Assembly (NCBI GenBank): GCA_051294905.1
Contig: CM119371.1
Span: 24,492,001-24,556,000, forward strand
Direction: 5' to 3'
DNA: 64,000 nt
Origin: Botryllus schlosseri
Taxonomy: Eukaryota
This document shows positions 17,108 through 41,239 of the stretch, piece after piece. The stretch's first letter is position 1; each line of letters begins with the position of its first letter. Position numbers and translations under genes: made by a program. Below the pieces are notes generated by a model. It saw only the letters and a list, made by a program, of their open reading frames with translations. It was not told the DNA's origin and did no database searches.

Positions 17108-17529
17108 AGGGAGTTGCATTTAAAACAAACACGTTTAAAACAAGGCCTTTGGTTGAAACATGTATTTTATTGTTTTTTTAAGCCATGACGTCGCGAATAT
17201 TCAATTGTGATGTCATAGTGGAATCACATTGGTAATTGAAAATATAGATTTAATATAGCTCCTTTGACGAAATATATGTACACTATTGCTGTTGAACCGA
17301 CTTTTCTGAGGGGTCCAACCGTTCCATATCGATATACGTCGGCTATTTCTGGTGGTTATTATCCGTAAGCTCGTACAACATGCTTTCTGGAAAGTATATT
17401 TACACAATTATGGCATAATTGTACAACTTGAAAAACACAAATTTTTTTAAAGACTTTTGTTTAAAACACTGTTGCAAACATGTATTAAACGAAGTGTTTT
17501 ATAACACCGTTTATTTTAAATCCATCCCT
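17108..17529. mobile_element. ~420-bp MITE-like repeat; second copy at ~37364-37768
   Basis: Imperfect TIR GTTGCATTTAAAA...TTTTAAATCCATCCC; colinear similarity to the 37.4-37.8 kb copy. TSD not clear. Confidence 0.65.
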
Positions 17530-18619
17530 AGTTGGAGAAGAGTCGCTGCCGAAGGGGTTGGTTGGTTCATTGGCTGGCTTCAGGGCTTGGCTGGCTTGTT
17601 GGTGGGAGTTGGCAGTTCATTCCTCGACAGAACGACGTTCTGGAGTGCCGAGACGTCGAGAGTTCATCTAGGCTCCAACTCCCTTAAAAGGTCGCTGCTG
17701 TGAAGGAAGAATAGCATAGCACTAATACATTACACCGAGCCAGTTGGGGAAGCCAGTGGCGCAGTTATCGCTGATTGCTGGTTGGATCACTGGCGTAGCC
17801 AGAGAGGTGCGATCGCTCTCCCCCTAAATTTCTGGAAAGTTTTCCTAAAATCAATAAATATATCAGTATTTGGGGGCAGATGAATACAACCTGAAAAATA
17901 TGTCCACGCTTCGCGCGATTTAGTGTCCAACATACACGTCTTGATTTTCTTATCGGTATCCCGAAAAAAATTCCTTCGTAAATACCCATAATTGAATTTA
18001 GCTGCATTTACATGAGAATACAACAGTACCAGTATGGATACACGCGATTATCCCAAGGTCGCTGGTTTGATTGAGTCTAGGGGTGTCAGTTCAGTATATG
18101 GGGGTTGGGGACTGTTAGTTACGGCAATTTCCGTACCGGGACACACGAAGACATTTAAAGTAGGCTACATGAGACTCCGCAGTGCACTGTCAAAATGATT
18201 GACAACTAAAAAACCGACGCATGCAGCATTCCGAAGCCTTCTATATAGATTTTCGGGTGCTTAAATGGCTGGCGCCTGATGATCCTGTCCCGGCAATCAG
18301 ACCCCTCCGGCATAAATGCGACTGGCACACCTCCCGTTAAAAAGTGCTAATTTGGAATCGCACGAGTCTGATCAAAGGAGTTTTTTTAATTTCGACTGGT
18401 ATATATCAGCAATTCCAATCTTTAAAGTAGGCCATAGCGTTAACTTTTATCAGGAGTTTGCTAAATAACCGCGTGCTTCAACGAAATAGGCATAATTACT
18501 GTAATCCACTGGCTCATATACACGCACCAATATTATTCATCAAAGTCTTTCTTTTATTTAAAAACATTCATCGAATTTTTCGCCCCCCCCCCCCTCCCCC
18601 AAATATTTCTTGTGGCTAC

Positions 18620-18892
18620 GTCCTTGGTTTCGAGTCTCGTCTCTGCCATGTTTTGATGTGTTGGAGGTTTATCTGGGTTCCTCATCGCCAATACCGCTGT
18701 AAATGTAGCGCCTTCACATGTCCAGAAGGGAAGAGAGAGCCGAACTCAAGAAAGATGGCGGCAGATACCAGAAAAAAGTACGCAAGAATGCGGCAAAGAT
18801 ATCAAAAGACACGAATTTATGAAATTACTCTCCGGGCGCAAATGACCTAGGAGTTAATATGCGTCAATTGTGTTAATAAAACAAACAAACAA
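18620..18892 (+). mobile_element. SINE of a related subfamily (shared core, (AAAC)n tail)
   Basis: Shares TGTTGGAGGTTTATCT-GG-TCCTC-TCGCC with the SINEs at 24.0 and 35.2 kb; ends in AAACAAACAAACAA. Confidence 0.55.
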
Positions 18893-19278
18893 CACCGGGC
18901 CAATAATGTCGTGATTTTCGAATGCGAGTAGTGGGGGATTCACGGTATACCGAAGAATCGTGCCTCACACCGTGAATCCTGGTTCGATTCCGCGTCGGAG
19001 TTTATTCTGTGCTTCATTGCCTCGCAGACCAGGTGAAAGAGCGCACTCACAAGGGATGGAAAAGCATCAAGAAAGAGGTGCGAGAAAACGAACTGTGACA
19101 TCGGGCACTAGGCTAGGATATATAACGGTTATTTTCAGGGATATGTTTCGGGTTGGGGTTAGTTTGGGGGTTATATAAAGTCACAGCATGCTGAAATGAT
19201 GCATGCTAAAGTGTCCTATGTTCAACTGTCGTTTTCGATTATGTTGCATGCTCAATGCTCATATGTCGGGCTATCATA

Positions 19279-19795
19279 TAGGGCTGGGCACAATGATTCG
19301 AGTACTCGAATCTGAATCGAGTATTAATTTCAATGATGCGAGTCGTGTAGCAAAATATGATTTTTTTGAGTACTAAAATTATACGCTTCTCGCCACTGAA
19401 AATTAATTTATCAACGAGAATTATAGTTTCGATACTGATTTTCACTGTTGAAGCCTTGAAACCTTGATCAGCGGTATCGTAACATACGAAATCGATGGTA
19501 CAAAGCTACGAAGGTTACTGGACGTAGCACATTTCCGAAGTCATGATTATCCCACAACATTGTAACCAAGTGGAATGAAACCGGTATGGTCGAAAAAATA
19601 CCAAAGTATCTTTTATGAGATGGATAACTGACATTTTATTCTTTGTGGTGGCATAAATGGTACATATTCGAGCTTTGACGTATTGTATTCTGTTATGACG
19701 TCATAATGAGTGATACTCGATTACTCGACTCGACTCGAAGCATATTACGTGATTCAGAATCGATTCACTCAGGTACTCGATTTTGCCCAGCCCTA
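19279..19795. mobile_element. MITE (TAGGGCTGGGCA termini)
   Basis: TIR TAGGGCTGGGCA / TGCCCAGCCCTA; 6-bp duplication ATCATA on both sides. Confidence 0.7.
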
Positions 19796-21285
19796 ATCAT
19801 ACATAGGGAAGATGTGGTACCAACGAGACACTGCATGGGACCGAAAATACTCGAAAATTTATCTGTGATAATCCCATGATTACAGTACGCGAATTTGTCC
19901 ACAATGGCATGCTGGCAGAATCGAGTCAAGTCAAGTCATACGAAAAAGTTCACTGGAGTCTGACTCGAGTCAAGTCATGACTCGAGTCATCCCGACACTG
20001 CCCTGTTTACCGTCTATTAGGGTCAGTGACCCAATGTTTACCCATCAGATTACTCATAAGCTCAATTTTTAACTATTACGGCAGTTCTCGGCCATTTGTG
20101 AGGCCAAATTCGTGTTATACTCGAAATTCGGGGTGTCCCGCAGTTTCCGCGTTTTTTTTAGATATTTTTCACCAGGCCATGTTCAGCGCTTACAAGGCTA
20201 AGTGACCAAATGTTTAGCCATCAGATACCTCGTATATTTTCAATTTTCACCTATTACGACAGTTTTCGGCCATTTGTGAGGCCAAACTCGTCTTATACTG
20301 GAAATGTAGGGTGTCCCGCGGTTTCTAGATATTTGCCACGAGGCCATATGCTGGGCGTGTATAATCGTCAGTGAACGAATGTTTGACCCGCAGATACTTA
20401 ATAAGTTCAATTTTTAACTTTATACGACAGTCCTCTGCCATTTGAGGCATAATTTGCCTCATACTCGAACATTTGTGTCCCGCGGTTTCCGCGGTTTCTA
20501 GATGTTTGCCACGAGGCAACGCTGCGCGTGTATAATCGTTAGTGACCGAAATGTGTAATCCTCAGATACTTCATAAGTTCGAATTTTAACTATCACGGCA
20601 GTTCGCGGCCGATGGTGTGGAGAGGTTAAATCTGCGTTGTATTCGAAAATTTAGGTGTTCGCAGTTTCCGCGTTTTCTTATATTCCGCCAGGCTATATTC
20701 AGCGTCTATTAGGGTCAGTGGCCGAAGGCTTAACCCTCAGATACTTCATAAGTTCGATTTATAACTATCACGACGGTTTGCGGTCGTTTGTGAGGTTAAA
20801 TCTGCCTTATACTCGAAAATTAGGGTGTCCCGCCGCTCCCGCGTTTTCAAGGTATTGTCCGCGAGGCCAGGTGTATTGTTAGTGAACGACTGTCTGACTC
20901 TCAGATACCAATTAATTTCAATTTTCAACTATTACGACAGTTCTCTGCTATTTATGAGGCCTAAATCGCCTCACTCTAAAATTGATGTCCCGCAGGTTCC
21001 TCGCTTTAGACTTTAGAGTTCCTTCAATGAGATCTACAAATGTCGATGACCGACTGTCCCGCGTTCCGCCATTTCCGCTGTTTCCTCGTTTTAGTGCCTA
21101 CTTTGTGCTCTATAGAGGTCAATGACCGACTGTTCCGCGTTCCGCGTTTTCCTCTGTTTTCAGCGCTTTAGGAATCGAGGTTTCCCGCTTTTTCCGCAGT
21201 TTCCGCGTTTTAGGGGCCATTTCCGCGAGTTCCGCGTTTTCCGCAGTTTCCGCGTTCCCTCCTTTTAGGGTTACCCTTGGAGCGG

Positions 21286-21690: not shown

Positions 21691-23608
21691 TACATATTCA
21701 GAACACGTATTTCGCCATGATGTGCACTGTGCAGTTGTGCAGTTGCACGCCTGGGTCCTGCTATATGCCTCTTTAGGCCTATAGTTCAGCTTATTAACAA
21801 TTTCATTAAATCAATACAAAGCAGGATTGCGATATATTAAAAAAAAACAGTACACCAATAAATGGCTATATAGCCTATATGTCTTACGATTTTGTCCGCG
21901 AGATGTGCATGTGCATCCCACGTGGGGATGAATAATGATAATATGCCATTTTGAACAGAGAGAGAGAGAGAGTCTTTATTTTGAACAAGCCAGCAGGACT
22001 CCATGAAAACGATATCCAAGTAGGGGCATCCTGATGAACTCCCATGTACGTGGCATCCAGGTGACTGACTACCATGACATCCTCTGGAATATTCATTGGT
22101 GACGGGAATAGGAAGATTCTAAAAATTTCTTCCACTTGAAGTCACCTGGAGTTACATAACTGGACGTCCAATTTGTGACAAACTGAGCAAGTCCTCAGTA
22201 ACTAACCTTGGGAGGTGGGACGAGTTGGAACAATTGTGGACATACCAGTAAATCCATGGGATATCGGGTGTTTGCTGGGAATTTACCAACTCGAAATCTC
22301 ACTCGCGCTACAAGTGAAGCTGAATTGTATCCGAATATGATAATTTACCACCGCTCAGCGCCAAACTGACTCTGTATAACAATATTACGCATGCGCGGTA
22401 TTTCAGAATGGTATAATGTCATTATCAGCAAATATTTCACAAACTTAATCGTTTACACGAATCAAAGCTAAAGTTGAAACGACAATATCAAGGTTTGAAA
22501 CCTTACAACTCGATCAGTGATTTTTTATTCAACTGTAAAATAAGTTAATATTCTGTAAGACACAACAATTATTGCTCGGGTAATGTGACATTGAGATTAC
22601 CAAATTGTATATTGAGAATACGAGATTTGAATGTTTGACTAGTGATAGACTGAAAAATATCTCACAAGTGAATCCATGTGTTATAATGCAGGCTATCGTG
22701 ATACAAACAAATTCAATACGGAATACCTATTAACCAATTGGCCCCCAACCCGAGATTCGAGTGTTCGATCAGTGCTCGATAAAAATTATTTTCATGTATA
22801 CCAACTCTTGCGTTGTGGTGAAGGGTGTTACGATATGAGCAAAGTTTTAATAAACACCATTATCAGCACCCCGATTGAGAAAAAACTTGATTCGTATTTA
22901 TGAAAAGTGTTTGATTGGGAATTTATCTATTTCTCACAATCCCGCCACTGTTCTTGAGGAATGGTATTATATGATTATTAAATAATATTTCACAAACTCA
23001 ACCCTAATCGTAAGACTTGAGAGAAATCACGTACTCGCTTGATGATAACACGCATGCGACAAAAAACATCACCGCGATTTTGTAAACTGATCATACTAAT
23101 CAGGGTATTTACCATCATGCTTCTAGAATAGGATTGACTACTAAAGGTAAATTCAGATAATCCAAAATGAAATATCTCAACTTTGACATAGTCTGAATTG
23201 AAATAGATTGACAAGCATACCTACCAACTTTCACCCACTCACATTTCAAAATTATGCACACATTGATTTAAAACAACTAATGTAACATTACAACTATATT
23301 CCCGATCCAGCTTTCCGTTTATCAAAGAGACATTTTAACATCTTACCATACTCAAAAGAATTATTCACAACATTAACAAGTGTTTAAAATCTAGTTTTCA
23401 CTTACTTGGCTATATCACTACAACTCGCAAACTTGAATTAATTCATCCTTGTGGTATTCGTATGACCGATAATTTTTATTCAACTGTAAAAGTCGTTACT
23501 AATCTATGACACAAAGTAATCACTACTCGGAAAATCTAGTTTTCACTTACTTGACTATATCACTACAACTCGCAAACTTGAATTAATTCATCCTGATGGT
23601 ATTCGTAT

Positions 23609-25281
23609 CAGACATGGGGTGATTACTTCATGAATGTAATCGATTGCGATTACGATTACTTCTAAAGGACGCGATTACGATTACGATTACGATTACAGCA
23701 AAATCAGGAAGTAGTCGATTACGATTACGATTACATTGGAAAAGTAATCACGATTACTCACGATTACATTTATTTTGCATCTTACAGGAATGTTGGAAGA
23801 CAATACATGGATGACAATTTGTTTGTGCGTCTCACGAAAGTTTTTCTTTTAGTCTTCTACGTTTGAGCCACTACAATATATTTTGATTATATAACAAACC
23901 GGAGGTCACGAATTAAGAACATGCACTAAAGTAATTATAACAAGAAACCAGAGGTCATAATTATGAATTACGTTCCCCCAGCTCTACAGGTAGGTAATTG
24001 TGTGTCGAGATAGCGCAGTGTTATAGTCCATGGTTGCGGGTTCGAGTCTGACCGAGGTCGACTTCAGAATTCCTACCTAAGTGTTGGAGGTTTATCTAGG
24101 CTCCTCCTCGCCGCCTCATCCGCGTAAGCGGTGTCTTACAAAAAGCTTAGAAATGGCCTATGCTACAAGTCGGGAGATACCGAATCAAAAATGCAGAAAA
24201 TCGGCCTGGTGTAAATGACCGTTGTAGTCGACAAACACCATGATTACCTCAAACAAATAAACTCTACATGTATATCTGACCATTGGGGGGCTGAGAGAGG
24301 ATTGAAAATTATTGACGAAACTCTTCAACTTGAGATTACCACCCTATGGAGGCCAAAGACTAACGTTTGGGCTGGGCCGCGGGGGGACGAATTGGTCCTG
24401 ATTCCAGCTACAACCCACGCTAACATGGTATATAAGCCCATGGCGGCAGGTCCAAATGTCGAATAAAAAATTATGAAATAACGATTGGCGCCCGTCTCAA
24501 GTAGGAGTCATATGATAAGGCGAAGTGAACATAAAATTCTGCCTTCAACTTAATACAGATATTGTACTGCAAGCTGCCGTTACGAGAAACGGCAAAAACG
24601 GCTCGATTATGATATATATAGCACCAGCTGATGATTTTTACTGCTTTGTTGTGGAAACGGCAATGTTTTAATTGACGAGTTCAAATCTTTGACAGGTGTA
24701 CGACTGTACGTACGTACTGGATAGGCCTACTGCTCGCCAAGCAGCAACGGTCAAATTGCGTTTAAGCATAACCAAATATCAACTTCAACACACAAGTCAC
24801 TATTTTAAACTAGGCAGAGCGGGAATAAATTATACTGCTGTGAGGTAGTGGCGTGTGGAACGTGTTTATAACCTAATATACAGCACGACGCGTGTTCTTA
24901 CAATCACACTAATGTACGACGTACGTACATCGAATATCTATTTACTGTGGACACTTTTTACACAATGACGCGCAAAGTTAATGGGCTGCTTCTGACGTAA
25001 TAATGAGCAGGGGCATTTGAAAATCAGACGTTTGTGCTGTCACGAACCTGGTATAATATATTTTCCTTGTTCACGAATGTTCAGTTTATGTGATAGTCCT
25101 TGTACAAATAAAAAGTAATCGTTCTTTCACAGAAAAATCGATTAGATATGCGAAGTAGTCGATTACGATTACGATTACTTCGGAATTTTTTCGAATGTAA
25201 TCGATTGCGATTACGATTACTTGAAAATGCTGTAATCGTCGTAATCGATTACGATTACTAATCACGATTACCCCATGTCTG
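23609..25281. mobile_element. Non-autonomous hAT element with (GATTAC)n subterminal repeats; left arm only
   Basis: TIR CAGACATGGGGT / ACCCCATGTCTG; 8-bp TSD ATTCGTAT (23601-23608, 25282-25289). Confidence 0.9.
24003..24262 (+). mobile_element. tRNA-derived SINE nested in the hAT element
   Basis: A-box-like TAGCGCAGTG and B-box GGTTCGAGTC; body matches the 35229-35507 copy. Confidence 0.8.
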
Positions 25282-27424
25282 ATTCGTATGACCGATGATT
25301 TTTATTCAACTGTAAAAGTCGTTACTAATCTATAACACAAAGTAATCACTACTCTATGCATACGACGAGATTTGAATACTCGGTCTATGATAGCAATTCG
25401 TACAAGTGAATCCAAGACATCGGGCTGTGAGAAAATCTTCACCACATTGACCTACCGCCTTATCCAACGTACTCAAAGTAAGTAGACACGATTTCAGTAA
25501 TATACACAATCATTACAACTGTAAACTATACTAATCAATCTCGGTCGTATTCACATATCACATACATGTGTTGTTGTTTTTTATTCCTTCAGTAAAATGT
25601 AGTCGTATTAATCTGACGATAACGTGCACACACAAGAAACATCACCGCGATTTTATAATTGATCACCCGACTTAGGGTACCAATAAACATTACCGGGATT
25701 TTTATAAACTAGCCATATTACTCAATACATCTATCAATATCAGAACGCAAGGTCCAATACCGAAAGAAAAGTACTTTTTTAGTTTAATAAAAATCAAATC
25801 ATTCGTCTTCATCTTGTGAATTGTCACACACCCAACTAATATCATACCAAATAGTTATTTACAACAAACAAGACACAGAAAATTTGTTTTGGACGTTTCG
25901 ATTTTATTACTGGGTGTACTGATCCCTTCGCTTCATACAATCTAGATTTAAACACCATCGAACCTTTGGTATCTATCGTTTTGCTGGATTCGAATTATGT
26001 TAGTCTAACAATAAACAAATTTCACTATCTTGGGTTATGAACTCAGTGTGTTAGCGGTCATTCAATATTTTGTAGTATCAACTAGTTACTTTGTGGGATA
26101 CGAATGATCATCCTCACAACTCTTACAAAAGTACGAAGGATATTTACATCACGCAAAGTAGTCGACTTTACTCGATATCCTCACACTACGAAACTAAATG
26201 ATTGGTTAGACTCTACAAACTGTTTTTGATGTCGTTTTTGACACGAATGGTCACGCATCTAAATATTCAAATAATCCAACACACCTTACAGAAATATCAT
26301 AGTTCTTGTAACAAAGTTGTATGAGTATAATGTTTATCGTAAGTCCCACACAGTCATATCCATCCGAGTTTGACTTTTAGAAAATATTGTACCGACATCG
26401 CGACATCTTTCAAAATTAAAACCACGGTGACTGCTTGAGATACCTACCAACGATATCACAGTAATACAGTTACTTCCACAAAAGAGTATGTATTCGACTT
26501 ACTTTCCACAAATCTAACGCACAAAACAATTTACTTTGCTAACGAAAAGTGCTGAATCATCATATGATTGTCCTCGCAACAATACAACTAAAACACACTA
26601 TCATACAAAATGGTCGTTATAGTTTGCATACCAACGGTACATCGTACAAGTAACAAGTCTCGAGAATCCAGTTATTCAAAAAACGTGAAAGTGTTTCTAC
26701 GCCAAGTTGTTATGTTGACGAAAGCGTATATTGTAATATCATGATCGATTTGCATTCGTTGGTCACAAAATGTCACTACTCTAAATAATTATTTTTCACT
26801 CAAACACAAAAGCATACTTGTCACCAATCGTTTTCATCAAGCACGAGTTCAAGAAGCTTACTACGACATGAATTGTTATTTTTATGTTTCGTAAATAGGT
26901 AATAATCAATTTTAGTATCACTGTATCAACATCATCGAGTTGTGCCAATAGATTTACATGTGGTCTTGTGGTTTTAATCGAAGTACACAGCACGGTCTAA
27001 TGTAGAGCCATCTCTATTGTACAGCAACTCGGTAATCAAAATGCAGGCATTAACATTTAAACAGCGATCTTGTTTCGTCACGCGAAAAATATGTTCACTG
27101 TCGCGATACTCTGCACAAGACGTGCAAATCCTTTTCCCCCTCGTAATAGTATACCAACGGCTACCTACGACAACGTTTAACAATACCAACGACACTGGAA
27201 ACACTGAAACCACAACACTTAACCGAGTAAAAATACATTTTCCTTTAGCTACATTACACTTACCCGACTAAACAATATCATTATCACCTGGAGATCCACC
27301 GTTACCCGAGTAACAAAATCATTTTCCTTTGTAGATCTATCGTTTACTCAGAGTAACAATACATTTTCACTTGAGGGTCTATCGTTTTCTAGAGTAACAA
27401 ACCCCTCTTTCCTTTAGAAATTTA

Positions 27425-28000
27425 TTTTTTCCCTGGGTAACAAACTTTTTTCACTTGGAAATATATTTTTTCTTTGGGTAACAAACCTTTATTACTTGGA
27501 AATATATTTTTTCCTGGGTAACAAACCTTTTTCACTTGGAAATATATTTTTTCTTTGGGTAACAAACCTATATCACTTGGAAATATATTTTTTTCCCTGA
27601 GCAACAAACCTTTTTCACTTGGAAATATATTTTTTCTTTGTGTAACAAACCTTTATCACTTGGAAATATATTTTTTCCCTGGGTTACAAACCTTTATCAC
27701 TTGGAAATATATTTTTCCCCTGGGTAACAAACCTTTTTCACTTAAAAATATATTATTTCCCTGAGCAACAAACCTTTTTCACTTGGAAATATATTTTTTC
27801 TCTGGGTAACAAACCTTTTTCACTTGGAAATATATTTTTTCCCTGAGCAACAAACCTTTTTCACTTGGAAATATATTTTTATCCCACAGCAACAAACCAT
27901 TTTCACTTGGAAAAATACTTTTACATAGAGTAACTAATCATTTTCTTTTGGAAATATATTTTCTCCCTGAGTAACAAACCCTTTTCGTTTGGAAAACCAT
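27425..28000 (+). repeat. 41-bp minisatellite (~12 regular units plus degenerate flanks), left arm
   Basis: Unit GGGTAACAAACCTTTTTCACTTGGAAATATATTTTTTCCCT starting at 27435, 27476, 27516, 27557, 27599, 27640, 27681 and onward. Confidence 0.95.
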
Positions 28001-29358
28001 CATTTACCTGAGTACCAATACCATTTGCACTTGGAAATCTTTTCTCTGGGTAACAATACCATTTTCGTTTTGAAAACTGACAACCACACCCGACAATTTG
28101 ATATTTTTGTATATTGTTACAACGGGCAGTGACAAAATATACACCAACAACGACTCCGATACATTTGTGTAATCGCATATTCACTTGTTCTGGTGCATCC
28201 CATCAAAATCATCGGTTAACCACATACAATATGCTCTTGTATATCGAAATGTATGTTTGGGAAATTGGACAATAGGTTTCGACATGTCCGCGATGTCCGG
28301 GTTCGTGCTTTGGATTGTCCAGAGTCAAAATGTCTGAATAAAACACCTCCTCGACGATGGCTGGTACGTGGATAACGGTGTTCGGAAAACCGTTGGATTT
28401 ATGTCACCCATCGCTATAACAATTCCAGGTCGAGTTTTCCCCGCATGTTTACTATATTGTGTCTTTATTGGTCAATGTATGTCTCGACATTCAGTTTGAA
28501 ATCGGAAACCCTGATAAAGTATGTAACCGGATCCGGATATCAACTCTGAATCGATAAACCAATGAACAATATTCAAAGTAAACATGTTACACCCCGTGTT
28601 TCCACGAAAAAATACCATCCAGACACACGTCGCGCTTGTTTGCCCACACCAGTATACGCGTAAATGGAGGTGTGTGACATTGCATGCAATGTGTTGGTAT
28701 ACAAACATCGGGGAGTAATCCGTCGATCCGCAGACATTATCATAGCCGGTAATTTTGATGCAGATCGTATGTCATCACACCCGATAACAATACCAATAAG
28801 CCACATCGCAATGACTCTTAGTCCGCGCTATTACATAGATATTTCGACACCGTTCACTGATTTAATCGATGGTTTTATCGCGTTGTAACATTACAAAATA
28901 GTCATGACCCTATCTCCGGACAGATCACCCAGATCGCTAGTGACTGGATACATCGGTCAATATCCGTCGTGTTGTCGACACCGAAGTTCTCTGCTGAGAC
29001 TACAGCGTTTGACCACTGTGAACTATCCATGTACGGTGCTCGAAACGATTGTGAAAACGATCAGTCTTTCAGTCACGATGAATGGATGTCGCTTCTCCTA
29101 CATAACGACTCCAGATAAATATCGCGAAAAGTGATTCTGCAAATCTCGGACTGATACTGTGATCCAATAAGGTGTGCTTCTGTGGACTGAAGACTGCAAT
29201 CGTACACTACAATACAACACTACCTCTCGTGATTTCACACGCAAACATAAAACACACCATCGTAAGGGTTTGTCAAGTTCGTTCGGTAACATTTCGAAAC
29301 GGTCGTCACCACAAGGCTATTTGATCGGGGTTGGTTTCAGTTTGTCATATCGAATAAC

Positions 29359-29637
29359 ATGTCACTCGGTTTTAGAATCCACCGTTTTTCAAGTCCCCAC
29401 ACCATAGTGTTACGATACAGACAAGATGCGATGGTGGAAATAAAACACGGAAGGCACACTTTGGTGTTATTTGACATGGATTTTACACCCGACGAACCTC
29501 ACATTCGAGCGATGCATTGGAACGCCGCTTGTATTATTGACATCGAAGGGAAAGAAATGTATCGATTTATTGGTTTCGTACATATCCAACAAAAATCTGG
29601 GTATGTGATTGTGCATGGTTCGCATATTCGACTTTGA
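29359..29637 (+). CDS. Unassigned 92-aa intronless protein in the palindrome spacer, paralog of 11507-11794
   Basis: Intact ORF. Motifs shared with the paralog: HTxVLRY, TLxLFDxDFxP, WN, IIDxEGKExxRFxGxVxIQxKSGxxIVxG. Confidence 0.75.
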   Translation: MSLGFRIHRFSSPHTIVLRYRQDAMVEIKHGRHTLVLFDMDFTPDEPHIRAMHWNAACIIDIEGKEMYRFIGFVHIQQKSGYVIVHGSHIRL

Positions 29638-30347
29638 ACGCTCTATTGGTATATGTTGTACAGTTCACTTTCACCGTCGTGTGAATAACCCATGTTACGG
29701 TTCCATGTTTCTGTGTCTGTATGTCATACTTCAGATTGACTCAGAGTCATTGCGATGTGGCTTATTGGTATTGTTATCGGGTGTGATGACATTGGATCTG
29801 CATCAAAATTACCGGCTATGATAATGTCTGTGGATCGACGGATTACTCCCCGATGTTTGTATACCAACAAATTGCATGCAATGTCACACACCTCCATTTA
29901 CGCGTATACTGGTGTGGGCAAACAAGCGCGACGTGTGTCTGGATGGTATTTTTTCGTGGAAACACGGGGTGTAACATGTTTACTTTGAATATTGTTCATT
30001 GGTTTATCGATTCAGAGTTGATATCCGGATCCGGTTACATACTTTATCAGGGTTTCCGATTTCAAACTGAATGTCGAGACATACATTGACCAATAAAGAC
30101 ACAATATAGTAAACATGCGGGGAAAACTCGACCTGGAATTGTTATAGCGATGGGTGACATAAATCCAACCGTTTTCCGAACACCCTTATCCACGTACCAG
30201 CCATCGTCGAGGAGGTGTTTTATTCAGACATTTTGACTCTGGACAATCCAAAGCACGAACCCGGACATCGCGGATATGTCGAAACCTATTGTCCAATTTC
30301 CCAAACATACATTTCGATATACAAGAGCATATTGTATGTGGTTAACC

Positions 30348-31172
30348 CAGGGGTGGGCAAACTTTTGAGCTCGCGGGCCGCATTCAACATCTTAATCCAT
30401 TCGCGGGCCGCACCAAAACGCAATATTGGTATTTGATCATATAGGAAGGACATGGCTCTTATATATATGCTTATTTAAAACAAACCAAACATTGCTTTGA
30501 TGGATCGTACACGCGTCAGAAACAGTTGGCGAGATTGTATAATCTGGTCGACCTCAATAACCAATGTGTCAAAACTATAGTGATGAAAGTAGGTTGTCCC
30601 GATTCTTAGAACAGGATTGAAATTTAAATCTATGAGCAGCGAACTGTTCATAGATTTACTAATTCAACTTTTGGTTTAGTTCCAGGACACATAATGCTGA
30701 CAGCATCATAACCATGTTAGCATCAATCACGCTTCTACTATGGGTAGATAAAATATAAATACCCTAATTCCACGCATACAGAGAACGAATCGAATAGTTT
30801 GATGGCATCAAAGATTACGACTGTGGATGAGAGATTTTTGAATATGAAATTCATACTGAATACAAGGCAATAACTGTGGATTAGATGTAAATCGCGCGGA
30901 GCGCGGAAAAAATTTCATTTGAGCTCAGCTTCGCGGCCCCCTTCAGATGCTTTCACGCCCCCAAGGTTGGGGGGAGGAAGGCGAGCCCCCAGTTTGAGAA
31001 TCACTGCCTTAGAATCTTCATGTTGAAATATACTAATAAAAAGTTGCATTAATTCGATTTTTAGTAAGCATTTTATCAATATTTTTAATAAGTTTCTTTA
31101 GACTCTCGCGGGCCGCACAAAACGGTGTTGCGGGCCGCATGCGGCCCGCGGGCCGTAGTTTGCCCACCCCTG
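30348..31172. mobile_element. hAT (Charlie-like) MITE; right arm only
   Basis: TIR CAGGGGTGGGCAAACT / AGTTTGCCCACCCCTG; TSD GGTTAACC (30340-30347, 31173-31180). The left arm has a single GGTTAACC at ~28214-28221. Confidence 0.92.
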
Positions 31173-31419
31173 GGTTAACCGATGATTTTGATGGGATGCA
31201 CCAGAACAAGTGAATATGCGATTACACAAATGTATCGGAGTCGTTGTTGGTGTATATTTTGTCACTGCCCGTTGTAACAATATACAAAAATATCAAATTG
31301 TCGGGTGTGGTTGTCAGTTTTCAAAACGAAAATGGTATTGTTACCCAGAGAAAAGATTTCCAAGTTCAAATGGTATTGGTACTCAGGTAAATGATAGTTT
31401 TCTAAACGAAAAGGGTTTG

Positions 31420-31972
31420 TTACCCAGGGAGAAAATATATTTCCAAAAGAAAATGATTAGTTACTCTATGTATAAGTATTTTTCCAAGTGAAAATGGTTT
31501 GTTGCTTTGGGATAAAAATATATTTCCAAGTGAAAAAGGTTTGTTGCTCAGGGAAAAAATATATTTCCAAGTGAAAAAGGTTTGTTACCCAGAGAAAAAA
31601 TATATTTCCAAGTGAAAAAGGTTTGTTGCTCAGGGAAAAAATATATTTTTAAGTGAAAAAGGTTTGTTACCCAGGGAAAAAATATATTTCTAAGTGATAA
31701 AGGTTTGTAACCCAGGGAAAAAATATATTTCCAAGTGATAAAGGTTTGTTACCCAAAGAAAAAATATATTTCCAAGTGAAAAAAGTTTGTTGCTCAGGGA
31801 AAAAAATATATTTCCAAGTGATATAGGTTTGTTACCCAAAGAAAAAATATATTTCCAAGTAAAAAAGGTTTGTTACCCAGGGAAAAAATATATTTCCAAG
31901 TGATAAAGGTTTGTTACCCAAAGAAAAAATATATTTCCAAGGGAAAAAGGTTTGTTACCCAGGGAAAAAATG
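31420..31972 (-). repeat. 41-bp minisatellite, right-arm mirror copy
   Basis: Reverse complement of the 27.4-28.0 kb array. Confidence 0.95.
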
Positions 31973-34900
31973 AATTTCTAAAGGAAAGGGGGGTTTGTTA
32001 CTCTAGAAAACGATAGACCCTCAAATGAAAATGTATTGTTACTCTGAGTAAACGATAGATCTACAAAGGAAAATGATTTTGTTACTCGGGTAACGGTGGA
32101 TCTCCAGGTGATAATGATATTGTTTAGTCGGGTAAGTGTAATGTAGCCAAAGGAAAATGTATTTTTACTCGGTTAGGTGTTGTGGTTTCAGTGTTTCCAG
32201 TGTCGTTGGTATTGTTAAACGTTGTCGTAGGTAGCCGTTGGTATACTATTACGAGGGGGAAAAGGATTTGCACGTCTTGTGCAGAGTATCGCGACAGTGA
32301 ACATATTTTTCGCGTGACGAAACAAGATCGCTGTTTAAATGTTAATGCCTGCATTTTGATTACCGAGTTGCTGTACAATAGAGATGGCTCTACATTAGAC
32401 CGTGCTGTGTACTTCGATTAAAACCACAAGACCACATGTAAATCTATTGGCACAACTCGATGATGTTGATACAGTGATACTAAAATTGATTATTACCTAT
32501 TTACGAAACATAAAAATAACAATTCATGTCGTAGTAAGCTTCTTGAACTCGTGCTTGATGAAAACGATTGGTGACAAGTATGCTTTTGTGTTTGAGTGAA
32601 AAATAATTATTTAGAGTAGTGACATTTTGTGACCAACGAATGCAAATCGATCATGATATTACAATATACGCTTTCGTCAACATAACAACTTGGCGTAGAA
32701 ACACTTTCACGTTTTTTGAATAACTGGATTCTCGAGACTTGTTACTTGTACGATGTACCGTTGGTATGCAAACTATAACGACCATTTTGTATGATAGTGT
32801 GTTTTAGTTGTATTGTTGCGAGGACAATCATATGATGATTCAGCACTTTTCGTTAGCAAAGTAAATTGTTTTGTGCGTTAGATTTGTGGAAAGTAAGTCG
32901 AATACATACTCTTTTGTGGAAGTAACTGTATTACTGTGATATCGTTGGTAGGTATCTCAAGCAGTCACCGTGGTTTTAATTTTGAAAGATGTCGCGATGT
33001 CGGTACAATATTTTCTAAAAGTCAAACTCGGATGGATATGACTGTGTGGGACTTACGATAAACATTATACTCATACAACTTTGTTACAAGAACTATGATA
33101 TTTCTGTAAGGTGTGTTGGATTATTTGAATATTTAGATGCGTGACCATTCGTGTCAAAAACGACATCAAAAACAGTTTGTAGAGTCTAACCAATCATTTA
33201 GTTTCGTAGTGTGAGGATATCGAGTGAAGTCGACTACTTTGCGTGATGTAAATATCCTTCGTACTTTTGTAAGAGTTGTGAGGATGATCATTCGTATCCT
33301 ACAAAGTAACTAGTTGATACTACAAAATATTGAATGACCGCTAACACACTGAGTTCATAACCCAAGATAGTGAAATTTGTTTATTGTTAGACTAACATAA
33401 TTCGTATCCAGCAAAACGATAGATACCAAAGGTTCGATGGTGTTTAAATCTAGATTGTATGAAGCGAAGGGATCAGTACACCCAGTAATAAAATCGAAAC
33501 GTCCAAAACAAATTTTCTGTGTCTTGTTTGTTGTAAATAACTATTTGGTATGATATTAGTTGGGTGTGTGACAATTCACAAGATGAAGACGAATGATTTG
33601 ATTTTTATTAAACTAAAAAAGTACTTTTCTTTCGGTATTGGACCTTGCGTTCTGATATTGATAGATGTATTGAGTAATATGTCTAGTTTATAAAAATCCC
33701 GGTAATGTTTATTGGTACCCTAAGTCGGGTGATCAATTATAAAATCGCGGTGATGTTTCTTGTGTGTGCACGTTATCGTCAGATTAATACGACTACATTT
33801 TACTGAAGGAATAAAAAAAAAAACATGTCTGTGATATGTGAATACGACCGAGATTGATTAGTATAGTTTACAGTTGTAATGATTGTGTATATTACTGAAA
33901 TCGTGTCTACTTACTTTGAGTACGTTGGATAAGGCGGTAGGTCAATGTGGTGAAGATTTTCTCACAGCCCGATGTCTTGGATTCACTTGTACGAATTGCT
34001 ATCATAGACCGAGTATTCAAATCTCGTCGTATGCATAGAGTAGTAATTACTTTGTGTCATAGATTAGTAACGACTTTTACAGTTGAATAAAAATTATCGG
34101 TCATACGAATACCACAAGGATGAATTAATTCAAGTTTGCGAGTTGTAGTGATATAGCCAAGTAAGTGAAAACTAGATTTTAAACACTTGACAAACGGAAA
34201 GCTGCATCGGGAATATAGTTGTAATGTTACATTAGTTGTTTCAAATCAATGTGTGCATAATTTCGAAATGTGAGTGGGTGAAAGTTGGTAGGTATGCTTG
34301 TCAATCTATTTCAATTCAGACTATGTCAAAGTTGATATATTTCATTTTGGATTATCTGAATTTACCTTTAGTAGTCAATCCTATTCTAGAAGCATGATGG
34401 TAAATACCCTGATTAGTATGATCAGTTTACAAAATCGCGGTGATGTTTTTTGTCGCATGCGTGTTATCATCAAGCGAGTACGTGATTTCTCTCAAGTCTT
34501 ACGATTAGGGTTGAGTTTGTGAAATATTATTTAATAATCATATAATACCATTCCTCAAGAACAGTGGCGGGATTGTGAGAAATAGATAAATTCCCAATCA
34601 AACACTTTTCATACATACGAATCAAGTTTTTTCTCAATCGGGGTGCTGATAATGGTGTTTATTAAAACTTTGCTCATATCGTAACACCCTTCACCACAAC
34701 GCAAGAGTTGGTATACATGAAAATAATTTTTATCGAGCGCTGATCGAACACTCGAATCTCGGGTTGGGGGCCAATTGGTTAATAGGTATTCCGTATTGAA
34801 TTTGTTTGTATCACGATAGCCTGCATTATAACACATGGATTCACTTGTGAGATATTTTTCAGTCTATCACTAGTCAAACATTCAAATCTCGTATTCTAAA

Positions 34901-35228
34901 TATACAATTTGGTAATCTCAATGTCACATTACCCGAGCAATAATTGTTGTGTCTTACAGAATATTGACTTATTTTACAGTTGAATAAAAAATCACTGATC
35001 GAGTTATAAGGTTTCAAACCTTAAAATTGTCGTTTCAACTTTAGCTTTGATTCGTGTAAACGATTAAGTTTGTGAAATATTTGCTGATAATGACATTATA
35101 CCATTCTGAAATACCGCGCATGCGTAATATTGTTATACAGAGTCAGTTTGGCGCTGAGCGGTGGTAAATTATCATATTCGGATACAATTCAGCTTCACTT
35201 GTAGCGCGAGTGAGATTTCGAGTTGGTA

Positions 35229-35507
35229 TGTTTGTTTGTTTGTGGGGTATTCATGGTGCTTGTCGACTACTATGGTCATTTACACCAGGCCGATATTCTT
35301 CTTATTTTTCCGTAACTGCCGACTTATAGCACGGCCCACCTCTAGGCTTTTGTAAGACACCGCTGACGCGGATGAGGTGGCGAGGAGGAGCCTAGGTAAA
35401 CCTCCAACACTTAGGTATCGGAATTCGCAAGTCGACCTCGGTCGGACTCGAACCCGCACCCATTGGTGTTGCAGCCGCGGATTATACCACTGCGCTATCT
35501 CGCCACT
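35229..35507 (-). mobile_element. Full-length tRNA-derived SINE (tRNA-Cys-like head)
   Basis: Minus strand reads GGCGAGATAGCGCAGTGG...CTGCAAC...GGTTCGAGTCC with an (AAAC)n tail; 13-bp TSD TTTCGAGTTGGTA (35216-35228, 35508-35520). Confidence 0.9.
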
Positions 35508-35801
35508 TTTCGAGTTGGTAAATTGACACATTGATTGAATATTACCATGATTCTTATGACGTGTCTAAAGTCAATCCTATTCTAGAAGCGTTGAAACTTA
35601 TAGCGACTGTGTGGAAATCGAAAACAGAGCCGAAAGTTGGTCAAGTCAAGTAATATTCCTAAAAAGATTGTATGATTTTACAATTATTTCGCATCTATTT
35701 GAGTATGTGGTAATCTCACAAAGGATTAGGGTTAGGGCGGAAATAAGTGACTATTTGTTGCTATTCAAGTTACCCACACTGATGGTTCTGTTAGTCGGTA
35801 T

Positions 35802-38800
35802 CAGGGATATATAGAACTCCGGGATGGCTGACTTCATTTTGGCCGTTACCTAAGTAGGTCCAGAAAGTTACCTGCAATCTGCCTCGAAATATCCACTTTT
35901 CTGCAAGCTAGCGATACAGCTGTTTCTAGAATAATGATCCTCACCCTTTTGCAGAATAGTTGGCACTTCTTCGATAGTAGGTAGACATCGAAAAGTGTTT
36001 ACCATGATCACCAATGAATGTTTCCCATGAACACGAATACAAATTTATAAACGTCAAAATGAATTGTTGTTTTTTGTGTCTTTGGAGAGACGGATATTGG
36101 GGTCTGGTTGGGGGGGGGGGTATTAAGATTCGATAGGGTTGAGGAAATAGGGATATTAGGGCTTGGGAGGGGATGTTAGGCTTGCGGGAAATTAGGGTTA
36201 TGGGAAGGGCGATATTAGGGTTTGGGAAAGAGGGATATTAAGGTTTGAGGAAAGGGGGATTGGAGGTGGGTTAGGGTCAAAGTTGGGGTTAGGTATCCCA
36301 AGATTAGGAAGGGGGATATTAGGGTTGCGGGAGGGAGGATATTAGGGTTGCGGGAGGGGGATATTAGGGTTGTGGGAGGGGGGATATTAGGGTTGGGGTT
36401 AGGGGGATATTAGGGTTGCGGGAGGGGGATATTAGGGTTGGGGTTAGGGGTATATTAGGGTTGTGGGAGGGGGGATATTAGGGTTGCGGGAGGGGGATAT
36501 TAGGGTTGTGGGATGGGGGATATTATAGGGTTGGGGTTAGGGGGATATTAGTGTTGCGGGAGGGAGATATTAGGTTGGAGTTATGGGGATATTAGGGTTG
36601 GAGGTGGGTTAGGTTCAACGTTGGGGTTAGATTACCCCTAACCGGTGTTTAACCCACCTCCAATCTCCCTTTCACCCAACCCTAATATCCCCTCTCCCAC
36701 AGCCCTAATATACCCTAACCCCAACATCCCCCTCCCATAACCCTAATATACCCCTAACCCCAACCCTAATATCCCCCCTCCCACAACCCTAATATCCCCC
36801 TCCCGCAACCCTAATATCCCCCTCCCGCAACCCTAATATCCCCCCTCCCACAACCCTAATATCCCCCCTCCCACAACCCTAATATCCCCCTAACCCCAAC
36901 CCTAATCTTGGGATACCCTAAACCCAACTTTGACCCTAACCCACTCCAAACGCAAAAACAATACATTTTGACGTTTATAAATTTTTGTTCGTGTTCATGG
37001 AAAACATTCATTGGTGATCATGGTGAACACTTTTCGATGTCTACCTACTATCGAAGAAGTGCCGAATAGTTAGTGAGTAAGCCAGACATTCTTCCCATAT
37101 CACAACCTTACTGCTGTATAGCCAACCAAGTAAACTATGACAACTCTGAATTTCAGTAAATCATGAATGTGTTTAATTTCTACACATCATATAATCTGCA
37201 TCAGGCCATAAATAACAGAGTGAATAACGAATAATATCAGCGTCTTCTACCTATTTACAAGCCATTGTCTGAAACCTTGCAGCTGGGAAGGGGGGGGGGG
37301 CGGTAATAGGATTGATTAAATCAACCATTTCAATTAGCGTTAATCGACAATTACCATGAAGTATAGGGTTGCATTTGAAACAAACATGTTTAAAACCAGG
37401 CCCTTGTATAAAACATACTTTTTTTAAGCGATTACGTCAAGAATATTCAACAGTGACGTCATATTGGATTGACATTGACAATTGAAAATATAGTGTGAAT
37501 ATAGCTCCTTTGACGAAATATATGTGCTATTGCTGTTGAACCAACTATTTTGAGGGTTCCAGCCATTCCATATCGATATTAGTCGGCTATATCGGGTCGT
37601 AATCGTCCGTAGGCTCATACAACACATGTTTTGGAAAGTATTTACACAATTATGGCATAATTTTACAACTTAAAAAGAATTTTTTTCAAAAGGCCTTTGT
37701 TTAAAACACTGTTTAAAGCATGTTTTAAACATTGTGTTTCAAACACAGTTTATTTTAAATGCACCCCCACCATGGAGCATTTACAATAACAAAAAGATAG
37801 CACGGCCTGTATGGACTCGAAATTGTGATAGCAGCATTGTCATCTTCTGTGTCACTCAATGAGAGTTGATCAAGAAATCAACACACCATTGATACTTCTC
37901 TTCAGGTTCAAATGCAGCCTGGGGGGGTAGAAGTTTGGTACATATCATTATCAATTTGAGAAGCATTCGGTAGACCCAGTTGTTGAATTCAGCTGATATT
38001 TTGTTCACCGAGCAATAGATTCATGACCGCAGTGAAGAAATTACAACCATGGCTTAACGGTACATCACGAATGGGCCTCCTGAAGCATTTCATGCCATTT
38101 ATCAGTTAAGAAATATTCAGTATCATTGTCTTGCAGATTTTCCGATAGAGCGATAGATGATTCCATGTCAAAAAAACATCTCGGTGAGGAGGCACGAGAT
38201 CCAAATATTCAGATTGTGGCCATCTTTGCCAAGATTTCAATGGGATGTGCCCAGAATAATATATCAGGATATCCACTGTTGACGTGATGCAAATGCTGGA
38301 ACATCGCGTTTGTTTTTCCGGAATCTGCAACAAAAATGAACAAATGATGTATTTAGAGACACAAATTAACCTTAAGAATATATATATAGATGTATGCAGA
38401 GTTGTTCTATAGTGAAGAACTTCTACTTCATTGTAGTACTCAAGTAGGTGTTGCCTATTTTCGAAGATAAATCTTGTAAATTTGAAGCAGCCATCTCCAA
38501 ACTCAAGTACCTTGCAGGCATTTCACTTTCTACAGCTACTTGAGGAAGTTTAAATACCAGTACGCCCGGGAATACAACTATTACTTGAGTAGCAACGCAG
38601 ACTACTTTAACCACATCAGGATTAATGTAAATCGCTCATTTAATAACGTATTACTAGAATCAGCCTAACTTACCTTTGGCCGACCGAGGAGAGCTCCAAT
38701 GCATTATTGCGACGATTTGACGAAACCTTGCAAATTGAAAGCAATCCTCAGAGTTTTCTCTTCCTTCGTCGTACAGGCCTATAGCCTATAGGCTATAAGT

Positions 38801-39914
38801 GTTTATTTGGTAAAGACAGGCCGTATCTCAGGATCGTATCGTGTCCTGACGATTGTGTTGGCTTATCCATTCAAGGGAGTGGGCATCTTCATGGCTTCAG
38901 TAAGAGCAAATGGTCAACAAATGTTGTGGCCATATACTGTACTGGAAGTCAGCCATTGGCAGTTCACAACAGTGCATTTCTGTTGAAGTATAATTCCAGT
39001 ACTGTAGCATTAAGGTGCCATTCATTAACAAACATATGCCTGTCTTGATTTACTAGACATGTAACTGATGAATAGTATCTGTAACAAGAGATTGGATTCA
39101 AAAGTTGTTATGGACACTTACAACTGCAACGACCTTGACGTGTTGTGTTTGTATTAGATTCAAATGTTTGGTTATCCTTATTTGAAATGCCTCTTGAATC
39201 TTGCACATCGGTAGTGTACTCATGCAGTGGCTCCAATTCTTACTAAGAATAATCAAGCAATGATCTGGAATACTGGTAAGCCTGCAATAGGCTACCAGCA
39301 CTACCTGCATATTCACATATTAATCCATAGCACAAGATCTTAACTGACGAAGTCCCTCCTAACGGTCGCCTTCATAGCTCACACGGCACAGTGTAAATGT
39401 ACACTTGTACTTGTACAATGTACAGCCTTGGATGGTATGGTGACATACATTCGCATAACATACCGGTAAATGAAAAACATACCGCAAGGCGTAATCTAAA
39501 TCATACTGCGGATATCAATGTTAACGTTAATTATTCTACATTTTGTTATTTTCTCACGATTATCAGCGCAGCAAAACATGTTACATAAGATACTACAGAA
39601 GCAGAGATATTCCGAAGCCGAGTAAATGACCGTACCGGCATACCGCTCAATTGCTGCTGAAGGAATAGGGCTAATACCGCAAAGTTTCAGACTACCTGAA
39701 CATCTCATAACCTAGTTAACGTATAGCTTTATATAAGAACATAAACATGAATATTATATGCCCCTACCGCTCTCAAAAACTTGAAATTACACACAGACGA
39801 AGCGGCTGACTGGAACGTGCATCAAAACTGAATGCGTGAATCCGGACCTACTTAGGTAATGCCGCGATGACGCAATTGACGCAGTCAGCCATCCCGGAGT
39901 TCTATATATCCCTG
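35802..39914. mobile_element. DNA transposon with 32-bp TIRs and 8-bp TSD (P-element-like termini; hAT not excluded)
   Basis: Perfect TIR CAGGGATATATAGAACTCCGGGATGGCTGACT (35802-35833, 39883-39914); TSD GTCGGTAT (35794-35801, 39915-39922). Only decayed minus-strand frames inside. Confidence 0.85.
35962..37063. mobile_element. Fully palindromic Merlin-like non-autonomous element with a G-rich/C-rich telomere-like interior
   Basis: ~110-bp TIR starting GGCACTTCTTCGATAG; 8-bp TSD GAATAGTT (35954-35961, 37064-37071). Interior GGGGGATATTAGGGTT repeats are mirrored by AACCCTAATATCCCCC repeats. Confidence 0.85.
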
Positions 39915-40309
39915 GTCGGTATTTATTAAATCTTACCTGCGAAATCAAGTTCTGTGACAAACTGATTACTAAAATTTCACCGCGTGAGCGATCGGTATGT
40001 TTGTAACACCAAGTCACTAAAAATGGTTATGCCCGAGACATTATTTTGTCAGCGATCGCTGGATTTGCAATCTATTTTACACTTTTTGAAGTGTTAATTT
40101 ACGAGCGCGGTTATTTGTTGGTCGCTTTTCGTGTCGCTGCTGAATACTGAATACTGCTTAATGTAATAGCACCGACTGGATTAGTGGAATAATCGATACG
40201 ATAGTGCGCGCTCCGAATTTCCAAAACGGACGTATTTAGAGGGTCACACAGGTCAAAATACAACCGCCAACATCTGGTTTTCAAAATCGCACAATGCACT
40301 GCGGATTAG

Positions 40310-41165
40310 TGAATTGCCTGTTTAGTGATGTCTATACCCGAAAGTACGATATGCGAGAGATGTCTATACCTAAAAGTACGATTCACGACCGCACCCATAA
40401 GAACACATGGCGAGTCACCGCATATCCCGTAAGAATACATGACAGGCGAATCACCGCCACCGCCTATAGCAAAAAAGGCGAGTCACGACCTCGAGTTTTC
40501 ACGGCGAATCACGACCGCGGTCTATACCCGAAAGTACGATATGCCGACGCATCCATAAGAACACATGGCGAATCACCACCACAACCTCATCCGCGTAAGC
40601 GGTGTCTTACAAAAAGCCTAGAGGTGGGCCGTGCTATAAGTCGGCAGTTACGGAAAATATGAAGAATATCGGCCTGGTGTAAATGACCATAGTAGTCGAC
40701 AAACACCATGAATATCCCAAAACAAACAAACAAAACCACCACAACCTATACGCGAAAGTACGACATGCGAGAGATGCCTATACCTAAAAGTACGATGTGC
40801 CAACACGAGTTTCCAATACGACATGCGAGAGATGCCTATACTTGAAAGTACGATGTGCGAGCGCACCCATAAGAACACATGGCGAATCACCACCACAGAC
40901 TATACGCGAAAGTACGACATGCGAAAGTACGACGTGCGAGAGATGGCTATACCTAAAAGTACGATGTGCCAACACGAGTTTTCAATACGATATGCGAGAG
41001 ATGCCTATACCTGAAAGTACGACATGCGAGCGCACCCATAAGAACGCATTACGATGTGTGACCGAGAGGGGGGTCAAAAAGTACGATATGCCACCACGAG
41101 TTTTCCATACGATGTGCGACCGCGCCCATAAGAGCCCATGCAAAAAAGCGCACATCACGACCGAT
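40310..41165 (+). repeat. Modular degenerate tandem repeat (AAAGTACGA / GCGAGAGATGCCTATACC / CCCATAAGAACACATGGCGA)
   Basis: These motifs recur many times in shuffled order. Confidence 0.85.
40588..40734 (+). mobile_element. 5'-truncated SINE of the same family
   Basis: Matches the 3' half of 35229-35507; 13-bp TSD ACCACCACAACCT (40575-40587, 40735-40747). Confidence 0.85.
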
Positions 41166-41239
41166 CAACTACACTACTAAAGTAAGGTACAAAATCGTAA
41201 AATACCTGGCGGTTGAGAACCACTGCATTAGACAACGAT

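Follow-up and report, generated by a model that had tools for sequence, protein, structure and literature searches.

Within a 64,000-nucleotide window of the Botryllus schlosseri genome (contig CM119371.1; the window is the whole stretch that was analysed), the tract that holds three related short frames, here copies A, B and C, is probably the right arm of an aged, palindromic, non-autonomous derivative of a Maverick/Polinton, about 13 kb long and organized as arm, 0.9-kb spacer and arm. The three copies would be relics of an accessory family from the terminal region of the parent element that had expanded in tandem. The element and its borders comprise:

21957-22279, minus strand: foreign piece adjoining the left arm, which we take to be retroposon-like from its 3' end, where the minus strand has AATAAA followed by a CT-repeat tail; no Pfam match
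22280-28823, minus strand: left arm of the palindrome, outer end apparently cut, with mirror copies of A (22990-23220), of C and of a 41-bp minisatellite
23609-25281, unstranded: insert confined to the left arm, bounded by terminal inverted repeats and flanked by an 8-bp target duplication
28824-29737, unstranded: unique central spacer of 914 bp
29738-35524, plus strand: part of the right arm with a mirror partner (palindrome edge 22280/35524)
30348-31172, unstranded: MITE present only in the right arm and flanked by an 8-bp target duplication
31335-32033, unstranded: 41-bp minisatellite, ~15 copies (mirror ~27340-28060)
35229-35507, minus strand: SINE-like insert flanked by a 12-13-bp target duplication and missing from other copies (35215 joined to 35508 in 3 contigs)
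35802-39914, unstranded: nested non-coding DNA transposon, presumably hAT-type, which has terminal inverted repeats and is flanked by an 8-bp target duplication
40321-41135, unstranded: subterminal repeat array; of the 12 occurrences of one 8-mer in the window, 11 lie here, as does a second SINE fragment (40584-40732)
41168-41178, minus strand: candidate right terminus with the (ACT)2-3' Maverick end motif (41173-41178)

The arms are about 99% complementary (30 mismatches in 3,726 aligned bases, in four segments with 0-1.3% each) and carry nested inserts, four on the right and one on the left, which arrived later. Without these inserts the right arm comes to 6,048 bp and the element to 13,010 bp, by coordinate arithmetic that assumes symmetric arms. 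On the same assumption, 13.0 kb falls within the 12.7-24.6 kb reported for intact Mavericks by Barreat and Katzourakis (2021; PMC8097293), who also give (ACT)2, the motif matched at 41173-41178, as the commonest vertebrate Maverick end. The motif lies directly behind the repeat array, where AT skew drops from 0.32 to -0.01, and unrelated dispersed repeats start 33 bp past 41178; the 6-mer itself is common in the 64-kb window (23 ACTACT, 19 AGTAGT). No left terminus with a 6-bp target duplication was found, as none of the 19 AGTAGT sites has the flank hexamer in front of it; a missing left junction is expected if the left end has been deleted.

The original prediction saw here, at 29-41 kb, one virus-like, gene-dense tract, of which only part had been inversely duplicated. 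The element does run beyond the palindrome edge; the B paralog lies past 35524 and the tract continues to 41178. Continuity across 35524 is predicted equally by the model of a palindromic satellite element and by that of the original prediction. The terminal 1.5 kb of the right arm have no partner in the window, and the edge at 22280/35524 is most likely a cut of the left arm rather than the limit of a partial duplication: the outer ~1.5 kb of that arm would have been deleted or replaced at 22280, and B and a further piece, D, would appear outside the palindrome as a result of this loss. The proposed alternative, an endogenous DNA-virus tract of greater length, made up of small genes in one orientation and with 29738-35524 inversely duplicated on the spot, seems unlikely. 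It would account for paralogs that extend past the paired part, for an absent left terminus and for an excess of long plus-strand frames in 28824-30347, but repeats and an end motif close the tract at 41178, its size is that of a symmetric 13-kb element, the left edge adjoins a foreign piece, as expected of a truncation, and neither viral core genes nor any match in viral contigs was found. The region is probably not open-ended, stopping at a Maverick-type end, and the sizes probably reflect a wholly palindromic 13-kb element with its left arm cut rather than a partial inverted duplication. Gene density is borne out in only one section: plus-strand runs of at least 75 codons number 6 against 1.6 expected in 28824-30347 (reached in 0 of 200 simulations), but 2 against 0.9 in 32034-35228 (47 of 200).

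Core genes of Mavericks are missing from the Pfam results for 33 ORFs of the window, and none of the families for pPolB, integrase, packaging ATPase, protease or capsid was found in 18 read-through frames (28824-30347, 32034-35228 and 39923-40332); these frames gave no match to any other Pfam family either. The same Pfam searches of window ORFs and read-through frames gave no herpesvirus-like or NCLDV hallmark replication or virion genes, and the terminal 21-mer has no match in viral or metagenome contigs.

The gene relics lie in the outer part of the arm:

33583-33811, plus strand: copy C, a DNA duplicate of the A region, frameshifted and neutrally diverged
33941-34093, plus strand: second duplicated block (partner 34832-34990), whose terminal stop codon overlaps AATAAA; similarity mainly at the DNA level
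34232-34368, plus strand: segment upstream of A with very deep coverage, the one bin outside the inserts where plus-strand RNA is clearly seen
34292-34522, plus strand: copy A, a stop-free frame with protein-level conservation evident only from 34394 onward
34373-34393, plus strand: 21-mer identical in A and B, conserved at the DNA level, unlike the remaining gene
35569-35801, plus strand: copy B, a diverged A paralog that lacks a start codon near its beginning and is interrupted by the 4.1-kb insert at 35802-39914
39923-40150, plus strand: piece D, a putatively coding frame with an internal stop at 40004 and no ATG

The paralogy of A and B, claimed earlier from shared peptide and DNA strings, holds. 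Their protein alignment scores 69, a value reached by none of 5,000 shuffles, and even without the first seven residues, which derive from the 21-mer, the score of 48 was reached by only 2 of 20,000 shuffles and by none of 1,777 stop-free pieces of the window; the other two frames score 19 and 18. Identity at codon positions 1, 2 and 3 is 13/38, 21/38 and 8/38 (0.34, 0.55 and 0.21; position 2 versus 3, p=0.004), and 8 of the 9 residues identical between A and B are encoded by different codons. These patterns indicate that A and B are true paralogs at the protein level that diverged under selection for the protein. The supposed decayed third copy is likewise real: C matches the A region at 78% over 68 nt (E 3e-8; local score 82 versus 37±5), with two 1-base gaps and stops, and shows no codon bias relative to A (17/22, 18/21 and 18/23). 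C arose by DNA duplication and then diverged neutrally. Two further candidates were rejected, a shared N-terminus of A and C read from an upstream ATG frame (1,285 of 5,000 shuffles) and 33885-33926 as a match to B (368 of 5,000).

Had the protein similarities been insignificant and without codon-position bias, a non-coding, satellite-like repeat with chance protein similarity would have been the natural reading, as the original prediction acknowledged. The lack of database homologs and the absence of codon bias in C and in the second duplicated block speak for such a repeat; the shuffles, the excess of position 2 over position 3 and the codon changes largely refute it for A and B and leave it a barely credible explanation. 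The relics are co-oriented and intronless-looking and probably represent virus-like DNA.

The exact 21-mer shared by A (34373-34393) and B (35569-35589) behaves differently from the frames that follow it. Its only other occurrence in the window at up to 3 mismatches is the mirror copy of A (23119-23139), and three matches were seen in 0 of 100 shuffles. Most likely the 21-mer is a cis element or conversion tract that heads the gene module, rather than a conserved peptide.

The coding parts of A, B and C are now disrupted and show almost no expression. The A and B frames are stop-free for 76-77 codons, with 97 codons the longest such run in 32050-35801, but the reading of these ORFs as intact fails: the first in-frame ATG of A, at 34394, leaves only 42 codons, B lacks any ATG upstream of 35782, and D lacks a start and is interrupted. 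In runs sampled at 3-6%, the bins of A and B have an RNA depth of 0-1.9, and other copies carry one-base deletions inside the open frames (A in 10 contigs, B in 4). A, B and C do not show the features of a functional small gene (a start codon, an intact frame, expression and intact homologs). That A and B are still functional, host-domesticated or satellite-active, with short or non-ATG starts, is very unlikely; the length of the stop-free frames, the frame of A being open in both palindrome arms, and plus-strand RNA just upstream of A (28.4 versus 3.1 and 5.6 versus 0.35) would favor it, whereas the low depth, the frameshifting deletions, the interruption of B and the lack of any matching predicted protein of 41-2,000 aa weigh against it. 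Among predicted proteins, none of 3 candidates of 41-135 aa proved homologous to A or B, nor did any of 182 of 136-2,000 aa, the latter being weak evidence; A and B had no match in Pfam or PHROGs, B none in the ESM Atlas, their 21-mer none in viral contigs, and Rfam gave none. A mitochondrial insert was rejected because mitochondrial codes yield no long frames.

Reads identify the stretch as a dispersed multi-copy repeat. In DNA run X1, 82,031 contigs match the mapped span of 32040-36130 (the boundary at 41178 lies outside it) and cover all 30 bins, the SINE supplying part of this count, with many variant contigs per site. Summed depth is 3,000-638,000 per bin versus 18-45 for the listed joints, a figure that is not a copy number. 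Other copies continue into the B region, with the joint lacking the SINE in 3 contigs and a 273-nt contig spanning 35508-35767.

The 4.1-kb insert has no Pfam match over 37062-39841. Its excision had been predicted to join another plus-strand frame. The inverted repeats and 8-bp duplication of the insert agree with this, and the flanking frames are in register, but the joined frame of 44 codons is unremarkable (chance alone gives it in 14% of cases for a single frame and in 36% when all three are considered) and D, as noted, contains a stop and no ATG. D has no significant relatives in the arm (767 and 1,683 of 5,000 shuffles; 846-912 of 1,000), the first of these values belonging to the rejected idea of an A/B gene with D as its C-terminal half. 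A similarity of D to cytomegalovirus gL was sub-threshold (E 0.031; 14 bits versus a cut-off of 25) and is taken as chance.

One intact conserved gene, the only one found, lies at the centre of the element:

29359-29637, plus strand: intact 92-codon centre gene of an unnamed family
11507-11794, plus strand: intact paralog outside the element, ~50% identical

The centre gene is intronless, its start and stop are conserved in all six aligned sequences, and the predicted-protein database contains four clusters of it. None of 375 pattern matches in viral contigs or 419 in metagenomes was confirmed, and the PDB gave no match. Nine long matches were discarded as sums of weak stretches (WD40 proteins in 5 of 6 checked). 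The AlphaFold model is poor (pLDDT 43), so the fold search, with 0 matches at E<=0.001, is uninformative; an ESM Atlas candidate, PmrD/IraM (score 0.75), is a lead only.

These data also bear on a foldback-type or other non-Maverick DNA transposon that had captured host gene fragments, with A, B and C as exon relics. Foldback elements typically have minisatellite-bearing inverted arms, and the present element resembles them in its long inverted arms, which contain tandem repeats and enclose a short loop. In both A and B the shared stretch comes after an AG, as it would at a splice acceptor, and the window holds other arm-repeat elements. However, none of the 15 listed joints (122 more are unlisted) has support from the two raw RNA runs, no host homolog was found among the candidates examined, the element's end carries a Maverick-type motif, and the centre gene lacks introns and has a conserved start and stop. 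Foldback elements are not known to have an (AGT)2 end or codon-conserved gene relics in their arms, and we regard such an origin as improbable.

As comparison systems we used animal Mavericks/Polintons (PMC8097293) and adintoviruses (Starrett et al. 2021; PMC8502044). The element resembles Mavericks in its candidate (ACT)2 end, in a length near the low end of their range, in decay into genomic fossils, and in intronless small ORFs near the terminus, which would correspond to the accessory regions that flank the Maverick core. It differs in the absence of genes for pPolB, integrase, ATPase, protease and capsid, in inverted arms of ~6 kb versus 46-1,447 bp, and in the missing left end and target duplication of this copy. 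According to a preprint (bioRxiv 10.1101/2025.02.07.637071), butterflies have polB-less polintons and polintons with gene-bearing 2-kb TIRs, which share with our element the long gene-duplicating inverted repeats, polymerase loss and nested transposon cargo; those polintons keep capsid and protease genes in the TIRs, whereas the arms here hold only decayed orphan ORFs and make up ~93% of the element. Search listings of the openly available literature gave no description of a wholly palindromic Maverick derivative.

In the Maverick-derivative reading, one Maverick end may have been copied back onto itself, which would have produced both arms and a functional end on each. The protein-primed polymerase of a helper would copy such elements and its integrase would insert them; since helper proteins would need only the ends, the arm genes could decay and the centre gene stay intact. 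Pfam, protein and contig searches found no Maverick core gene, nor any homolog that would link Mavericks with A, B, C or the centre gene.

The value of these results is modest: they add an orphan, mostly dead gene family and correct the anatomy of one copy. They support the view of giant palindromes in the B. schlosseri genome as descendants of a coding, virus-like element, because the arms keep protein-selected relics that point toward the terminus. A, B and the centre gene can serve as probes for locating the helper Maverick. More tentatively, A and B might belong to an undescribed accessory family of this animal's Mavericks, expanded in tandem by the terminus and reshuffled at the 21-nt module, with intact, expressed members in helpers or younger satellites, to which the plus-strand RNA next to A might point. 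If this doubtful but possible reading were true, palindromic satellites would be both a fossil record and a shuffling ground for viral accessory genes.

The related short frames A, B and C, with frame D beyond a 4.1-kb insert, are a real feature of this eukaryotic, repeat-rich DNA. They lie in and beyond the right arm of a palindrome, with the following features around them.

Features of the element and its nested inserts
11507-11794 (+), intact gene outside the element, paralogous to the centre gene and about 50% identical to it
22280-28823, left arm of the palindrome
23609-25281, insert, left arm only, with target duplication
29359-29637 (+), centre gene, a 92-codon ORF in the spacer
29738-35524, right arm, paired part
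30348-31172, MITE, right arm only, with target duplication
33583-33811 (+), frame C
34292-34522 (+), frame A, with a mirror copy in the left arm
35229-35507, SINE-like piece, right arm only, with target duplication
35569-35801 (+), frame B
35802-39914, 4.1-kb element, with target duplication
39923-40150 (+), frame D
40321-41135, repeat array beyond D
41173-41178, (ACT)2 end behind the array, candidate right terminus

The original prediction took A and B for diverged paralogs, and their protein alignment score of 69 exceeds all 5,000 shuffles. Without the seven residues of an exact 21-mer common to both (34373-34393 and 35569-35589; elsewhere in the window only in A's mirror copy), the score of 48 was reached by 2 of 20,000 shuffles and by none of 1,777 stop-free window pieces, against scores of 19 and 18 in the remaining two frames. 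Over 38 aligned codons, identities at positions 1, 2 and 3 number 13, 21 and 8, and eight of nine identical residues have changed codons. The codon diagonal was picked from the protein alignment, giving some bias toward position 2; despite this choice, the pattern points to past selection on the protein. Thus the two properties named as the test against a non-coding satellite, protein significance and codon-position bias, are both present for this pair. At the background rate, the run of seven identical third positions in the 21-mer would arise with a probability between roughly 2e-5 and 2e-4, indicating that this segment was conserved as DNA. Among contigs of the DNA sequencing run X1, one joint (35561 to 34462) links the stretch just before B back to mid-A, hinting at an A/B module with mosaic copies.

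C, predicted as a decayed third copy near 33700-33810, is indeed a significant DNA duplicate of A; its two 1-base gaps, stops and flat codon-position identity (17/22, 18/21 and 18/23) indicate that it diverged after function was lost. A has only 42 codons from its first ATG, in B an ATG comes only among the final codons, and D contains an internal stop but no ATG; no copy looks like a working gene. Searches including Pfam and PHROG found no homologs of A or B. The frame obtained by excising 35802-39914 is in register, as proposed, but spans only 44 codons, expected by chance in one of three frames at 36%; no relative of D was found in the arm. The claim of a gene-dense tract stands for 28824-30347, where no simulation of 200 reaches the observed count of long frames, but not for 32034-35228 (reached in 47 of 200). 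Within 28824-30347, plus-strand stop-free runs of at least 75 codons number six against 1.6 expected, with the excess at 29609-30347 (+), which has no Pfam match and may be a further decayed gene. In a second duplicated block, the stop codon overlaps AATAAA in both copies (34088-34093 and 34985-34990), a compact gene-end arrangement.

Contigs and RNA were mapped on 32040-36130 in 30 bins. Run X1 gave 82,031 contigs covering all 30. Summed depth is about 3,000 for C, 9,300 for A and 29,900 for B; other parts, the SINE excepted, reach as much as 509,000, compared with 18-45 at the joints listed. These depths are not copy numbers. The deepest non-SINE arm part, 32128-32860 (170,000-509,000), contains a 97-codon frame (32128-32418, +) and is possibly a core module common to many subfamilies. 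Three contigs skip the SINE and one of 273 nt spans 35508-35767; other copies therefore cross the right-hand outer limit of palindrome pairing (35524) into B, in agreement with the predicted extension past this edge. Other copies also carry one-base deletions within these open frames, seen for A in 10 contigs (depth 1,210/4,382) and for B in 4 (393/2,537). In two RNA runs, sampled at about 6% and 3%, the bins holding A, B and C had a depth of 0-1.9, and none of the 15 joints listed had raw-RNA support. Just upstream of A, at 34232-34368, plus-strand RNA was favoured (5.6 vs 0.35 and 28.4 vs 3.1); DNA depth there is about 25 times that of A.

The palindrome arms, separated by a 914-bp spacer, differ at 30 of 3,726 aligned bases. 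The MITE, the SINE-like piece and 23609-25281 differ between arms and are younger than the palindrome. At 23329-23385 and 23531-23608 the left arm contains 54 bp that the right arm lacks and 78 bp that are duplicated locally, indicating that the arms are starting to diverge by indels. Nested in the 4.1-kb insert at 35962-37063 is a small palindromic element. Its inverted arrays repeat a 22-23-bp unit that includes TTAGGG, and RNA reads from its ends are abundant.

The centre gene is the one intact gene of the element. Its identity to the paralog by codon position is 0.66, 0.78 and 0.36, and homologs of 91-95 aa form four clusters in public assemblies; searches of Pfam, PHROG, the PDB and viral contigs gave no match, and no usable fold prediction was obtained. 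The paralog has no flanking inverted arms, is almost identical to P0001 on a 4-kb metagenome contig, and lies near an 88-92-bp tandem repeat (10763-11029). Elsewhere in the window, 15200-21276 is a foldback-like element whose 1.3-1.5-kb inverted arms (93-98% complementary) consist of 170-bp tandem repeats, and 55828-63371 holds nested retrotransposon remains, with retrotransposon ORFs at 55-63 kb. A 990-codon ORF there (56925-59897, -), flanked by 300-bp direct repeats, is presumably gag/protease-like, and we take other pieces to be Gypsy-like RT and integrase and LINE-like, all by motif.

At the (ACT)2 end, AT skew shifts from 0.32 to -0.01, and unrelated dispersed repeats run from 41211 onward; the 6-mer itself is frequent (23 in the window). 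According to PMC8097293, (ACT)2 is the commonest vertebrate Maverick end motif. By subtraction, the arm without nested inserts measures 6,048 bp, and the element 13,010 bp if symmetric. At 22280 the left arm gives way to a foreign, retroposon-like piece; neither a left terminus nor a 6-bp duplication is present in the window. The original prediction saw a 29-41 kb tract only partly inversely duplicated; the tract does pass the edge, but the simplest reading of the sequence is that the whole element was palindromic and the outer part of its left arm has been lost. The Polinton-type core genes that the prediction proposed to find (pPolB, integrase, packaging ATPase, capsids), together with the protease, were sought with a negative outcome, so this is not an autonomous Maverick, and no gene provided a homology tie to Mavericks. 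The element probably works like a non-autonomous Maverick derivative.

We propose that the palindrome arose when copying of a parent Maverick turned back along one of its ends, which would place the terminus and adjacent outward-pointing accessory genes in both arms. According to PMC8097293, Maverick end repeats probably assist protein-primed replication at its jumping-back step, and accessory ORFs flank the core modules in most Mavericks; 10.1101/2025.02.07.637071 describes butterfly polintons without polB and others with long TIRs duplicating genes. Maverick derivatives that are palindromic throughout are not described in the titles, abstract openings and paper passages covered. The polymerase and integrase would come in trans from a helper, leaving the arm genes dispensable and decaying, while the centre gene would be retained for some role. 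A and B would already have been separate working paralogs in the parent lineage, and C a later, dead duplicate. This mechanism is inferred; directly observed are the codon bias, the decay, the presence of many copies, the end motif and the nested inserts. The analysis contributes an orphan gene family, now decayed, from a single damaged copy of the element.
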